DNA of 34,960 nt, taken from the UHGV virus genome UHGV-0140617; one strand, 5' to 3'. The notes below the pieces were generated by a model. That model was not told the DNA's origin, searched no databases, and saw only the letters and a list, made by a program, of their open reading frames with translations. This DNA comes from a virus. Position 1 is the stretch's first letter; each line of letters starts with the position of its first letter. This document shows, piece after piece, positions 12,324 to 21,460 of this stretch. Made by a program: the position numbers and the translations under genes.

Positions 12324-12977
12324 TTAAAATTTGATGTTTTTAAGTGCATCCAGTGCGGTACTCACTTCATCAACATCACGCTGTGAAAGTGAGCTATAAC
12401 CCCCGGCCATGAATGCTTTAGCCTGGGTGCGTGAGAGCCCAACATCGCGCAGGACTCGTTCAATACTTTTTTGAGAAGGGATTTCTCCGCGGGAAAATGC
12501 GCTTTTGACATCACTTACACGCGCTTCATCGTTCGACGGAAACGTGACGAGACTGACTTCCCACAGGTCGATCTCTTTGAGAAGGAACACGCCCTTAACA
12601 CGGTCGTATTCCCAGTCTTTCAGCATGTAACCAATAGAAAGGCCGGTTAAAGAACCGGCCTTCATGTGGGCGTGTGCGCGTTTCGAAAGGGGATCGTCAT
12701 CAATGAGTAACCGGCCTTTAACATAAAGGCCAACCTCATCCTCTTTCATCTCGGTGTAAATACCGATGGGTTCATCCATACGGTGCTGCCAGAGTAATGC
12801 AGGGAGAGCATTCTTTTCTTTCCATGCCTGAAGGGAGGCCGAAAAAGCGCCTGGCACAACAACATCATCGTAGCTGTCCTTTACGCCAAAAACAGAGCCA
12901 TAGCCTTCAAACTCCCCGCTGTCGCTGACAGACTTTAGCTGTAGCGGAATATCCAGCCGCTGTTTAGTCATCGGCAT
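12324..12977 (-). CDS. Prohead protease (HK97 family, S78)
   Basis: 217 aa; position between portal and capsid; HK97-protease-like sequence. Confidence 0.85.
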   Translation of the reverse strand: MPMTKQRLDIPLQLKSVSDSGEFEGYGSVFGVKDSYDDVVVPGAFSASLQAWKEKNALPALLWQHRMDEPIGIYTEMKEDEVGLYVKGRLLIDDDPLSKRAHAHMKAGSLTGLSIGYMLKDWEYDRVKGVFLLKEIDLWEVSLVTFPSNDEARVSDVKSAFSRGEIPSQKSIERVLRDVGLSRTQAKAFMAGGYSSLSQRDVDEVSTALDALKNIKF

Positions 12978-14193
12978 TATGTTGTTCCTCGGTTGTTTTG
13001 TTCTTGCTGCTGTCTGACGGTTTCGTCGTCATGTTCATTGGCGTAAGGTAAATATCTCCGCCTGCGCGTGGGTTAAGTTCTTCAAGTTCCCGGCAGTCAT
13101 TTGGTGAGTAAATACCCCAGTTAATGCCTGTTGAATACGCCTCAAATCGCGACTTCATATCCCCGCGCAGCAATGCGCCGGCATTGAATTTTGCGTAGTA
13201 CACACCCTGCTTTGATTCCTTCACCAGCCCGATGTTGATTCGCTGCTCAATGCGGGTCATATACGGAACGAGTGAATAATTGATAAACCCCATGCCGAGG
13301 TTTTCAATATTGTTAAACGTCGAGCGGTCAGTGTTCTGCACCATGTGCATCGGCACACGGAACAGGCGGCATATTTCCTCCAGCTGGAATTTCCTGGTCT
13401 CAAGGAACTGACTGTCTTCCGCATTGAGCGCCATCGACTTCCAGTCCAGTCCCATTTCGAGAATCATTGGTCGGTGCGCGTTGCTCAGCCCGAGGTGACG
13501 GTCCTCAAAATCCTTTTTCAGCCTTGCGTAAGCAGCGTCAGTGAGCGTTTGCTCAGTGCGGAGTACGCCGGAGGTAACCGCGCCATTTGAGAACAACCGC
13601 GCCCCATGTTCCTCTGTTGCCATTCCCAGAGATATTGCTTCTCTTGCATAGGCTATAGGGTTCAGCCCCACCAGCCCGTCAAAGGTAAGCGTTCTGACAT
13701 GCCAGATATCATCCTGCCCAAGCACGTCTGTTGAGCCATCGGGGAATGTTACCTGGTAAACCGGTTGCCACTGGCTGTTAAGCTTTGGTTCAACACACCC
13801 AGGGTCAATGGGAAGAAGCTCCACCACCTCGCCAAGCGCTTTAACTTTGTAGGCGTAAAAATTACCGCGAAGACAAAGACAGACAATGACCAGTTCCCAG
13901 AACTCCTGGGGGGTCATGTAATCATTTGGCTTCATCGTCAGTAATTTATGCAGCCTTTCGGAAGTCGCTTTTTGTTTACTGTTTCCGGTTATCTTGTACA
14001 GGTTACAGGGCAGCATGCCCATCGACTCAGCAAGAACACGGATGCAACCGAAAACCGCTGTAAGCCGCATGGCTTTCTGGCTGCTTACCCTTTTCCCTGT
14101 ATAGGTGTCGTAAGTCATTCCCACTGCTTCAGCGAGTTCTGCCGCAGTAGTGACAGGGGCATCACTTTTTTTGAACATTCCGGGGAAAAACAT
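12964..14193 (-). CDS. Portal protein (HK97 family)
   Basis: 409 aa; typical portal length and sequence; follows terminase. Confidence 0.9.
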   Translation of the reverse strand: MFFPGMFKKSDAPVTTAAELAEAVGMTYDTYTGKRVSSQKAMRLTAVFGCIRVLAESMGMLPCNLYKITGNSKQKATSERLHKLLTMKPNDYMTPQEFWELVIVCLCLRGNFYAYKVKALGEVVELLPIDPGCVEPKLNSQWQPVYQVTFPDGSTDVLGQDDIWHVRTLTFDGLVGLNPIAYAREAISLGMATEEHGARLFSNGAVTSGVLRTEQTLTDAAYARLKKDFEDRHLGLSNAHRPMILEMGLDWKSMALNAEDSQFLETRKFQLEEICRLFRVPMHMVQNTDRSTFNNIENLGMGFINYSLVPYMTRIEQRINIGLVKESKQGVYYAKFNAGALLRGDMKSRFEAYSTGINWGIYSPNDCRELEELNPRAGGDIYLTPMNMTTKPSDSSKNKTTEEQHNADD

Positions 14194-14388: not shown

Positions 14389-16146
14389 TTATAATGAACG
14401 GACGCCGTAACTTTCCAGATGGTCAGAGAGGCTGTCCTGTTGTTCGCCGCCGTTTACAAGCATGCGGCTCATTGCGGTAAACAAGGCGGCAGGCCCGTCT
14501 ATTTTCGCTTCTGGCGTGGATTTGTTCGGAAAGATATTGTCGTTTTTGTCAGGTTTGACGGTGACATTAGACATCATCCAGTTCATTACAGGATGATTGC
14601 TGTGATGAAAACGCCCGCCGTAAACCAGCGATTCAACCTCTTTCATTGACTCAGAAAAGTTTCTGACCGTCTGCGGAACCTCCACCAGCGGCACGCCCTC
14701 TTCTGCCAGAGCCAGGCTAAACTGCGTTGCGCTCCACGGGTCGAATCCGGTTTCCTTCAGGTTTTCGCCACTAATCCATTCCAGAAAATCAGCTTTAATC
14801 TGCGCATGATCGATAACATCACCATCGGTCAGTTCCAGCTTCCCAAGCTCAGCCCATTTGCGATACATCTGCGCCATTTGAGCGGAACATTTTTCCAGCC
14901 GCCCTTCGGGTAACCAGAATTTAAAGTCTGCATGCGCGTGACCGTTGTCTGCCCGCCAGAGTTTTACTGCTGCGCAAATATCAATCTTGTGGGCCAGATC
15001 CACGCCAGCCCACATCGGGTAGGTTTTCAGCTCATGACGGGGGGCTATAAACTCACATTTTTCCCACTTGATCATGTCCATCCAGGCTGACTCAGCGGTC
15101 ACCCAGATATTCATGTGTTTGGTGAAAAAGTTAACCCTGGCGGAAACTTGTTCTTTGGCCTTCTTAGCCAGACGGCGAAGGTCATCCCAGCGCTTACAGA
15201 TTCCGAGTCCGGGGTTAGCCTTTTGCCACACCGTTTCATCAAACGGATCATCATCTTTATCCAGGGTGAAGATGATGGCGAAAAAGGTGTCATCCTTCAC
15301 CGCGCCTTCCACTTCGCTGTTATAGCCACGCAGCACCTTAATGGCATAATCGCGCAGCTCGTAACAAATCCCTTCTTTGTTAAACCCGGCTGTCGTTATG
15401 CCAAACAGAAGAGACTGCAATCGTGCGCCGGTTGCAGTCTCCAGAACGTCCCAGACATCACGGGTTTTATGCGCATGAAGTTCGTCGACGATGCCACAAT
15501 GGATGTTGAGACCATCAAGATTGTTGGCATCAGAAGATAGCGGTTCAAACTTGGATGCTGTCTGCTCCTGGTAGATCGCCAGTTTGTTGAATTCAAACAG
15601 TCGCCCAAGTGTGGGTTTCGCTTTTTTAACCATGTTTTTCGCATCTTCAAAAACGATGCGAGCCTGATCCCGCGTTGTCGCTGCGGAATAAACCTCTGCC
15701 CCGCCCTCACCATCGGCGCCAGCCATATAGAGACCAACGCCAGAGGATAATGTCGATTTGGCGTTTTTACGGGCTACCTCGTTATATGCCGTGCGAAACC
15801 TGCGGACCATCACAGGACGGCCACTGCCATCATTACGCAGCACGACTTCGCCTGTTTCTTCATTTACCAGTGGGATAACAAAACCGAAAATGTTGATCAG
15901 AATGAAAATATGCCAGTCCATCAGCTCAATCGGCTGGCCTGCCAGTGCTCCTTTTACATGAGGCACGAATTTATAGAAATTGAGGATGTGCTGTGCGCGG
16001 GGCTCGCTGAAATAGATACCACGTTCCTCACCGTATTTCAGATCATCAAGAAAACGCTGGCAGGCGAGGCGGACAAATTCACAAGTGATAACTTCACCGG
16101 CAACGACGCGTTCGGCGTAACGTATCCCATCGGCAACTTTAGCCAT
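14389..16146 (-). CDS. Terminase large subunit
   Basis: 585 aa; N-terminal ATPase region and C-terminal nuclease region typical of Terminase_1 family; TAATG-type overlap with the small subunit. Confidence 0.9.
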   Translation of the reverse strand: MAKVADGIRYAERVVAGEVITCEFVRLACQRFLDDLKYGEERGIYFSEPRAQHILNFYKFVPHVKGALAGQPIELMDWHIFILINIFGFVIPLVNEETGEVVLRNDGSGRPVMVRRFRTAYNEVARKNAKSTLSSGVGLYMAGADGEGGAEVYSAATTRDQARIVFEDAKNMVKKAKPTLGRLFEFNKLAIYQEQTASKFEPLSSDANNLDGLNIHCGIVDELHAHKTRDVWDVLETATGARLQSLLFGITTAGFNKEGICYELRDYAIKVLRGYNSEVEGAVKDDTFFAIIFTLDKDDDPFDETVWQKANPGLGICKRWDDLRRLAKKAKEQVSARVNFFTKHMNIWVTAESAWMDMIKWEKCEFIAPRHELKTYPMWAGVDLAHKIDICAAVKLWRADNGHAHADFKFWLPEGRLEKCSAQMAQMYRKWAELGKLELTDGDVIDHAQIKADFLEWISGENLKETGFDPWSATQFSLALAEEGVPLVEVPQTVRNFSESMKEVESLVYGGRFHHSNHPVMNWMMSNVTVKPDKNDNIFPNKSTPEAKIDGPAALFTAMSRMLVNGGEQQDSLSDHLESYGVRSL

Positions 16147-16619
16147 TAGTCCCTCGCTTTCATAAATTCAGTAATAAGATCAACTTCGCCCGGAGTTTTT
16201 GTACTTACCTTAGATCGACTGGCAGGCGTCATTCCGAACTCACCAAGCATGGCTCGCAGCCTCTTCCAGGCGTCGGCTTTCATAATTGCTGCCGGGTGTG
16301 CCTTTATCATGACGTCACCAGTCTGCGTTTCAGTTCGGTACGTATATCCCTCAATCTCCAGCGTGTCGCAGTGATGTCTGTATTCGGTATACGCTTCCAC
16401 AAGCAGCTCAAGGGCTCGCCCATCAAGCTGAGATATGACGCCAATGGCATCAAGTTCTTCGGCCATCCGCTTAAACCAGTACTTCCCCTGCTTGTCGAAA
16501 TGCTTGGGAACTGGGGGGACCCCTTTAGGTGGCTGCGGCTCGTTTTTGTTGATTGGTCGTTTGGAAGGGTTACCCCTCACCAAACGCAGATGGGTAGGGG
16601 TTTTCGGCGGTCCTGACAT
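16146..16619 (-). CDS. Terminase small subunit (P27 family)
   Basis: 157 aa starting MSGPPKTPTHLRLVRGNPSKRP..., characteristic of P27-family small terminases. Confidence 0.85.
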   Translation of the reverse strand: MSGPPKTPTHLRLVRGNPSKRPINKNEPQPPKGVPPVPKHFDKQGKYWFKRMAEELDAIGVISQLDGRALELLVEAYTEYRHHCDTLEIEGYTYRTETQTGDVMIKAHPAAIMKADAWKRLRAMLGEFGMTPASRSKVSTKTPGEVDLITEFMKARD

Positions 16620-16775
16620 AATCGAAAACTCCTATTAATCATCGGCTGGGGGACCCCAAAAAAAGTTTTCTAACCTGCGGCGATGTGAAGAAAGGCTAGG
16701 CGGCGGTCCTTTGGGCTCCCGGCTACAGGGATTTGACCTCCCCCTCCCCTCTACGCCTGTTGATGATAATTACTA
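16620..16775. other. Candidate cos / packaging-initiation region
   Basis: 156-bp GC-rich non-coding gap between HNH and small terminase; contains AGGCGGCGGTCCT resembling the lambda cohesive end GGGCGGCGACCT, plus flanking G/C runs. Confidence 0.35.
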
Positions 16776-17126
16776 TCATTTAAAGCGCTCGCGACCTGTT
16801 TTCGAGCGGTGGCAGGGCCAGCACAGGCTTTCAAGGTTCGAATCATCATCGGTACCCCCATGTGCCTTAGCCTTGATATGGTCAACGGTTGTGGCCGCGA
16901 CAGCACGTCCAGTACGCAGGCAGTTCTGACACAGATGATTATCACGCTTCAGGATGCGCGCGCGCTTGATATCCCACTTGCCGCCATAGCCACGCTCATG
17001 GCGACTCTTACCCTGCTGATGCTGCTTCCAGCCCTCATTGCGATGCTGCTCACAGTAGCCTGAACGGTCCGTAGTCGTACCGGGACAACCTCTCTTGCGA
17101 CATGCGCGAGGGATTAACGCTGGCAT
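16776..17126 (-). CDS. HNH endonuclease
   Basis: 116 aa with Cys pairs and HxxxH...N...H pattern (CQNCLRTG...VDHIKAKAHGGTDDDSNLESLCWPCH); classic position upstream of terminase in HK97-like cos phages. Confidence 0.85.
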   Translation of the reverse strand: MPALIPRACRKRGCPGTTTDRSGYCEQHRNEGWKQHQQGKSRHERGYGGKWDIKRARILKRDNHLCQNCLRTGRAVAATTVDHIKAKAHGGTDDDSNLESLCWPCHRSKTGRERFK

Positions 17127-21247: not shown

Positions 21248-21460
21248 TCAGGCAGCTACAACGTTTTCGGCTGACGGCCCTTTTGCACCAGCAGTGATGC
21301 TGAACTCAACTTTTTGGCCTTCATTCAGCGTTTTAAAACCACCACTCTGAATGGCAGAGAAGTGTACAAACACATCTTTACTACCGTTATCAGGGGTAAT
21401 AAAACCAAAACCTTTAGATTCATTAAACCATTTTACTAAACCAGTCATTTTATTAGACAC
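21248..21460 (-). CDS. Cold-shock protein, CspA family (prophage-borne paralog)
   Basis: 70 aa [38 protein letters not shown]... with RNP1/RNP2 motifs; ORF-track start is GTG (21458-21460), alternative ATG at 21446-21448. Confidence 0.9.

Follow-up and report, generated by a model that had tools for sequence, protein, structure and literature searches.

The locus studied here raises the question of whether a 156-bp non-coding gap at positions 16620-16775, with an HNH endonuclease gene on one side and a small terminase gene on the other, is the place where the viral chromosome is cut for packaging and, if so, to which kind of cutting site it belongs. The gap lies in a stretch of 34,960 nucleotides of the virus genome UHGV-0140617, which is designated in its entirety as the window. 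A first-pass annotation of the window had proposed a cos site between these two genes, and their placement on either side of the gap agrees with both the ORF layout and the Pfam matches. Very probably the gap contains cos of a temperate HK97-like phage that carries its packaging genes on the minus strand, a reading that is built on sequence comparison. The site belongs to the known HK97-type, HNH-assisted kind of cos, of which it is an ordinary representative. It is not a lambda-type cosN, for it departs from lambda in its terminase families, in its orientation and in the overhang polarity to be expected.

The window includes the late region of an HK97-like, lambdoid prophage. Its packaging genes are encoded by the minus strand, where the order is HNH, gap, TerS, TerL and portal. 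The HNH endonuclease (16776-17126, minus strand, 116 aa; PF01844, E=2e-15) features an N-terminal zinc ribbon. The small terminase (TerS; 16146-16619, minus strand; PF05119 Terminase_4, E=1e-24) is a member of the P27 family. It is followed by the large terminase, an ATPase and nuclease of HK97 type (TerL; 14389-16146, minus strand; PF03354 and PF20441), and by the portal gene (12964-14193, minus strand; PF04860). Identification by family match in the window is limited to TerS, TerL, HNH and portal; through the rest of it runs an unbroken series of ORFs that, in size and order, would suit head, tail and lysis genes. The sole PDB match of TerL is the HK97 TerL structure 6z6d (E=1.8e-36), and its Pfam scan returned only TerL_ATPase and TerL_nuclease, the lambda GpA-type family not being among the matches. 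TerS shows no detectable sequence similarity to HK97 gp1 and a weak one to the TerS of phage Gamma (E=0.001). The HNH protein has full-length homology to the HNH nickase of GVE2 (5h0m, E=3e-14) and to N.phiGamma, the HNH protein of phage Gamma (33% identity in an alignment of 123 positions including gaps, E=9e-13). Both homologies include the N-terminal zinc ribbon. The match to HK97 gp74 is partial (E=1e-9). The HNH protein is predicted to be the accessory nuclease of the packaging machine that nicks the + strand of cos, and terS to be the first gene packaged after the predicted cut.

The motif pointed out in the first-pass annotation, AGGCGGCGGTCCT, occurs a single time in the window, on the + strand at 16698-16710. 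Searched with up to two mismatches it has three matches in the window versus 0.72 expected, and the bare motif is statistically unremarkable. What places it beyond chance is its conservation and its register with known phage ends, not its own sequence, and by these two properties it corresponds to the cutting core of the predicted cos site. The G and C runs said to flank the motif are indeed present on either side, as GGGGGACCCC (~16648-16657) and CCCCCTCCCCTC (~16739-16750). The gap had also been described as GC-rich, which is incorrect: its GC content is 51.3% versus 49.9% for the window, at the 50th percentile of all 156-nt intervals. The likeness of the motif to the lambda overhang GGGCGGCGACCT stands for 10 of 12 positions, but it requires one indel, and the direction of the motif is away from the terminase genes. 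Read towards these genes it is AGGACCGCCGCCT, an orientation opposite to that found in lambda.

Read from the HNH gene to terS, the gap is organized as ...TGATAGTAATTATCATCAACAGGCGTAGA GGGGAGGGGGAGGTCAAATC CCTGTAGCCGGGAGCCCAAAG GAC^CGCCGCCTAG^CCTTTCTT CACATCGCCGCAGGTTAGAAAACTTTTTTT GGGGTCCCCC AGCCGATGATTAATAGGAGTTTTCGATT ATG, where "^" identifies a predicted nick. All elements described below are given on the minus strand. An AT-rich palindrome, ATGATAGTAATTATCAT (16763-16779), overlaps the HNH stop codon and displays the conserved pattern AATGA-N-TCAT. The G-run block GGGGAGGGGGAGGTCAAATC (16730-16749), the upstream element of the cos left half, is separated from the core by a spacer of variable sequence and a fixed length of 21 nt (16709-16729). 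The cutting core AAAGGAC^CGCCGCCTAG^CC (16694-16712), equivalent to cosN, contains the motif of the first-pass annotation. Homology predicts within it a 10-nt 3' cohesive end, 5'-CGCCGCCTAG-3' (16696-16705), whose complement on the + strand is CTAGGCGGCG. A 30-nt block with a T7 tract, CACATCGCCGCAGGTTAGAAAACTTTTTTT (16658-16687), occupies positions +9 to +38 from the predicted cut and is the putative equivalent of cosB; the stretch 16650-16695 holds the T7 tract and GCAGGTTAG. Just upstream of the TerS ribosome-binding site the sequence reads as a second palindrome, TGGGGTCCCCCA (16647-16658), that is kept across the family with small variations.

Two repeats were also noted in this region. 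An 11-nt inverted repeat, GGGACCCCAAA / TTTGGGCTCCC (16650-16660 and 16710-16720, 91% complementary), has one arm on either side of the core and downstream block; its conservation in other subfamilies is not apparent by eye. The 10-mer CGGCGGTCCT is present twice, 96 nt apart, in the cos core (16701-16710) and in TerS codons 2-5 (16605-16614), and the latter copy likewise contains ACCG. This copy is probably coincidental, since relatives read GGACCACCG there and the sequence is not conserved among them at the DNA level.

The register of the predicted cut is given by HK97. The HK97 record terminates with ...GGGGGGGGGATCAAATC-21 nt-TGACCGCCGCCAAA and starts with GTTTG... (more fully, ...GGGGGGGGGATCAAATC TTCAAAACCTTTGCCCCAAAT GACCGCCGCCAAA at its end and GTTTGAATTT... 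at its start), and the window counterpart of this end is GGGGAGGGGGAGGTCAAATC-21 nt-GGACCGCCGCCTAG. In an ungapped alignment, the 80 nt of the window that end at the predicted overhang are identical to the last 80 nt of the HK97 record at 46 of 80 positions, whereas 5000 dinucleotide shuffles gave 20.5 +/- 3.9 identities and never more than 36. The G-run, TCAAATC, the 21-nt spacer and GAC^CGCCGCC are common to both and in register. The two phages also share the position of cos between the HNH gene and terS, as well as a homologous TerL. The HK97 ends are 10-nt 3' overhangs of sequence CGCCGCCAAA, the cut being taken as +1, i.e. the record start. The HK97 cos is cut by TerL gp2 with TerS gp1 and the HNH protein gp74, and its TerS site, CTAACCCGATTTTTT, extends from +15 to +29, a span that the downstream block of the window also covers.

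The last three bases of the overhang differ between the two phages, being TAG in the window and AAA in HK97. The right halves of cos are unrelated except for the T7 tract, which is found downstream of the cut at +32 to +38 in the window and at +24 to +30 in HK97. Sharing of this tract alone between the HK97 TerS site and its putative equivalent in the window fits with TerS proteins that are unrelated in sequence: that of the window is a PF05119 protein whereas HK97 gp1 belongs to another family. The HNH proteins differ as well, the N-terminal zinc ribbon of the window protein being absent from gp74.

By their full set of partners (P27 TerS, zinc-ribbon HNH and CGCCGCC overhang), the closest relatives of the window site are the sites of the Bacillus phages Gamma and Wbeta. 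The phage Gamma record carries at both ends the sequence CGCCGCCCC, preceded by GTAC and by a GGGTAGGGGCGGGTCGAAA block (sequence ahead of CGCCGCCCC: ...GGGTAGGGGCGGGTCGAAAAACATTCAGGGCGGTCTGTCCGTAC). This sequence is the experimentally determined 9-nt cohesive end of Wbeta-like phages (Gamma, Wbeta, Fah). The literature is inconsistent on its polarity: one paper reports 5' overhangs on the basis of PhageTerm, while a review citing work on Fah describes 3'-extended ends. Compared in register, Gamma and the window are identical at 34 of 68 positions (shuffles: 19.7 +/- 3.7, maximum 33). The layout is alike, with the GGGTAGGGGCGGGTCGAAA block, a spacer and a GTAC^CGCCGCC core in Gamma, and with the G-run at a distance close to that of the window. 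The predicted cohesive end of the window and that of Gamma both start with CGCCGCC right after AC, in the context GGAC^CGCCGCCTAG in the window and GTAC^CGCCGCCCC in Gamma. They also have in common a P27-family TerS (TIGR01558) and a zinc-ribbon HNH protein encoded beside cos. Gamma differs by its Gram-positive host, by its downstream block, by a TerS whose similarity to that of the window is marginal and by a stagger of 9 nt versus the 10 nt predicted for the window. The length and polarity of the overhang in the window phage are predictions by homology with the ends of HK97 and of Gamma/Wbeta/Fah.

A related arrangement is seen in Geobacillus virus E2 (GVE2, NC_009552.3), where positions 130-190, just past the HNH stop codon, read GGGTAGGGGCGGTCTGGAAAG...CTAGGGAC^CGGCGGGGGC. 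This layout resembles the cos left half; its in-register identity to the window, 22 of 68 positions, is not significant. The deposited GVE2 record begins inside the HNH gene and not at the cos-like site.

Conservation of the site was assessed in two sets of relatives. When viral contigs were scanned for a 23-nt pattern taken from the downstream block, 120 loci with this layout were retrieved. Since this retrieval, the source of most sequences in the larger set, biases the conservation of the downstream block there, an unbiased set of 25 loci retrieved through the TerS protein alone (64-91% amino-acid identity) was added. It covers Leclercia, Citrobacter, Enterobacter, Klebsiella, Serratia, Xenorhabdus, Pantoea, Rosenbergiella, Symbiopectobacterium and other genera. 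Scored as agreement with the window base for each element, conservation in the 25 loci is 0.89 for the core, 0.87 for the downstream block and 0.72 for the G-run block, which is bordered by the poorly conserved spacer (0.43) and by the stretch beside the HNH stop (0.45). The highest score, 0.94, is that of the ~40 nt leading up to the ATG. In the 20 TerS-retrieved loci that match the strict core pattern, the core begins 89-91 nt ahead of the ATG, and the remaining 5 of the 25 have a one-base variant of the core at the same place. Of 123 unique sequences, 122 contain ACCG, and in 113 it is found 85-87 nt upstream of the TerS ATG. Core and downstream 30-nt block are kept at a constant distance from the terminase start codon in >100 Enterobacterales prophages. 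Of 124 loci, 112 encode an HNH homologue in the 700 nt upstream.

The phage mEp235 (PV340540.1) and the other 12 loci have no HNH homologue in this interval and still carry the cos core and the G-run. In mEp235 small hypothetical genes take the place of the HNH gene. In such genomes the HNH gene is either located elsewhere or dispensable. The palindrome at the HNH stop also occurs in mEp235, at a locus without an annotated adjacent HNH gene, and its AATGA-N-TCAT columns are conserved in the unbiased alignment; a looser resemblance is found in HK97 at the same relative position. This palindrome may act as an accessory element of cos or bind a protein. Note that one chromosome, that of Symbiopectobacterium purcellii (NZ_CP189882.1), carries five terS-cos copies with equal TerS match scores (64% identity to the window TerS, E=1e-63). 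Their cos-proximal upstream sequences fall into two variants, so that this insect symbiont carries several related prophage copies.

Deposited genome ends provide a further view of the site. The Proteus phage Pm34, whose TerS is 69% identical to that of the window (tblastn) and belongs to the same TerS family, has a record opened at ...CTAGGAC^CGCCCCCTTACC..., i.e. at GGAC^CGCC, the first predicted nick (longer context ...CCACCTAGGAC^CGCCCCCTTACCTCTTTTCACATC...), a boundary that is in itself uninformative on overhang polarity. Pm34 also carries the G-run block at a distance from the cut closely similar to that in the window. AC^CGCC is thus found at the same place in the window, HK97, Gamma and Pm34, and is a recorded genome end in three of the four. 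Among the other viral contigs, none has an end at the predicted nick.

The second predicted nick is reached in the record of the Escherichia phage Fraca (LR597645.1). Its positions 1-125 duplicate an internal terL segment (1843-1967), which is fused through a CCT microhomology to CCTCTTTTCAC, corresponding to +1 to +4 of the predicted left end. A junction located at the second predicted nick is what an artefact that arose on a physical DNA end should look like. The Fraca left end fits an HK97-type stagger of ~10 nt whose 3' overhang was lost in library end repair. The right end of the record (43,560-43,664) continues across cos into a repeat of the first genuine bases, which makes the deposited sequence chimeric and terminally redundant.

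In another Escherichia phage, CharmingMan (PP925830.1), positions 2100-2135 correspond to window 16690-16715 with the core inverted, TTAGGCGGCGGTCCTTT running towards terS, and flanked by an inverted GCGCC...GGCGC (foldback). This inverted core is unique among ~120 sequences, and 5,426 complete E. coli genomes contain no full-length, high-identity match to the arrangement. On the grounds of this uniqueness, of the lack of a match in E. coli and of the foldback flanks, a natural cosN inversion was set aside in favour of an artefact, probably from foldback or assembly, at a physical end. A full-text literature search with the overhang decamers returned only unrelated primer sequences, and a Serratia phage paper holds no cos data for the terminase family of the window.

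Three alternatives to a functional HK97-type cos have to be weighed. The one that survives best, although it is improbable, is that the prophage is defective and the gap a relic, a cos homologue fallen out of use. The evidence at hand is of sequence, and inducibility is not proven by anything in the window. However, the packaging genes are all intact ORFs with full-length family matches, the core of the window is the family consensus at all conserved positions, and the ORFs that resemble head, tail and lysis genes, as judged from sizes and order only, are unbroken.

Still less probable is that the gap is only an expression signal of the late operon, acting in translation start, antitermination or processing, with the packaging site elsewhere or with headful packaging. 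The most conserved ~40 nt are precisely the ribosome-binding region before the ATG. The downstream block lies within the 5' untranslated region of terS, where it could act at the RNA level, and part of its conservation could reflect the translation start region. Nevertheless, a scan of the gap predicted neither a terminator nor a minus-strand (coding-strand) promoter. Islands of conservation at the core and the G-run, set apart by a variable spacer of fixed length, fit a DNA-protein architecture and not an RNA leader, and in HK97 and Gamma the same architecture coincides exactly with the physical ends. A headful phage would be recognised by a headful-type TerL and a pac site in or near terS; here TerL is of the HK97 cos type and the site aligns to fixed ends.

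The least probable alternative is a lambda-like site where a lambda-type terminase would cut cosN and leave 12-nt 5' overhangs resembling GGGCGGCGACCT: the 10/12 match of the motif and the 5' overhangs that one paper (PhageTerm) reports for the related Wbeta-type end speak in its favour, but TerL is of HK97 type and has no GpA-type match, TerS is of the P27 family and not Nu1, GGGCGGCGACCT was not found running towards terS, the in-register match is to an HK97 end with 10-nt 3' overhangs, and the HNH partner present here has no counterpart in lambda. Lambda and the window have in common a cos-type site that adjoins the terminase genes, a GGCGGCG core and a general logic in which the nicking site is followed, towards the terminase genes, by a terminase-binding site and preceded by an accessory element. 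The lambda site has the organization cosQ-cosN-cosB with a 12-nt 5' overhang, and its terminase families, overhang polarity and overhang length are unlike those of the site predicted here. The lambda analogy of the first-pass annotation is merely superficial, given the opposite orientation and the different terminase families; polarity and length of the overhang would also set the two apart if the predicted HK97-type 10-nt 3' ends are right. Its proposal of a cos-type packaging site is upheld by the HK97-type TerL, the nickase homology of the HNH protein, the 46/80 alignment to HK97 and the end of the Pm34 record.

At an HNH-assisted cos of HK97 type, a holoenzyme composed of the P27-family TerS, the HK97-type TerL and the HNH protein would assemble on concatemeric DNA and introduce two nicks 10 nt apart, one in the + strand at 16705/16706 (CG^GT) and the other in the minus strand at 16696/16695. 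The products would be 10-nt 3' overhangs, with CGCCGCCTAG on the right end of the virion DNA and the complement on the left. From 16695, packaging would proceed to lower coordinates (TerS, TerL, portal, head and tail genes) and halt at the next cos. TerS would recognise the downstream block 16658-16687, which is likely its recognition site; binding is assigned there from position and conservation, as TerS lacks detectable similarity to HK97 gp1.

In the likeliest division of labour, the HNH protein would make the CG^GT nick in the + strand and the TerL nuclease the nick in the minus strand. N.phiGamma and the GVE2 HNH protein nick CG^GT, written AC^CG on the other strand, and AC^CG is the context of the first nick in the window, in HK97 and in phage Gamma's own cos. 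The correspondence between the conserved AC^CG and the HNH nick specificity favours this division, with one strand left to HNH and the other to TerL. Such a strand division is one of two possibilities given in the HK97 structural paper, while the paper on nick specificity draws no link to cos and calls the function of the HNH enzymes unknown. The assignment of CG^GT to HNH is not firm even in the model phage, since HK97 gp74 is described as a non-specific nuclease. The AC^CG match offers a simple and testable answer to the question, open for HK97-type phages, of which nuclease cuts which strand.

A broader proposal combines these elements: AC^CG would be the HNH nick site across the HK97, Wbeta/Gamma and P27-like group, with the TerL nick 9-10 nt away, and cos would be modular. 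As a whole it is tentative and falls somewhat short of an even chance. The left half and the core of cos may travel with TerL and HNH, from Bacillus to Enterobacterales phages, and the right half may be swapped along with unrelated TerS families. The cutting core is common to >100 enterobacterial prophages with a P27-family TerS, to HK97 and to the Bacillus phages Gamma and Wbeta. What goes slightly beyond routine annotation is that a cos left half is shared between phages of Gram-positive and Gram-negative bacteria while the right half varies with the TerS family, and that the context of the cut coincides with the HNH nick specificity. In practice, the predicted virion chromosome ends (16695/16706) and direction of packaging are useful for the annotation of this prophage and for reading induction sequencing.

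Outside of the packaging region, a 70-aa ORF on the minus strand (21248-21460) has, by eye and from its sequence only, the look of a CspA-family cold-shock protein. A possible moron gene, it is found in an AT-rich stretch past the lysis genes.
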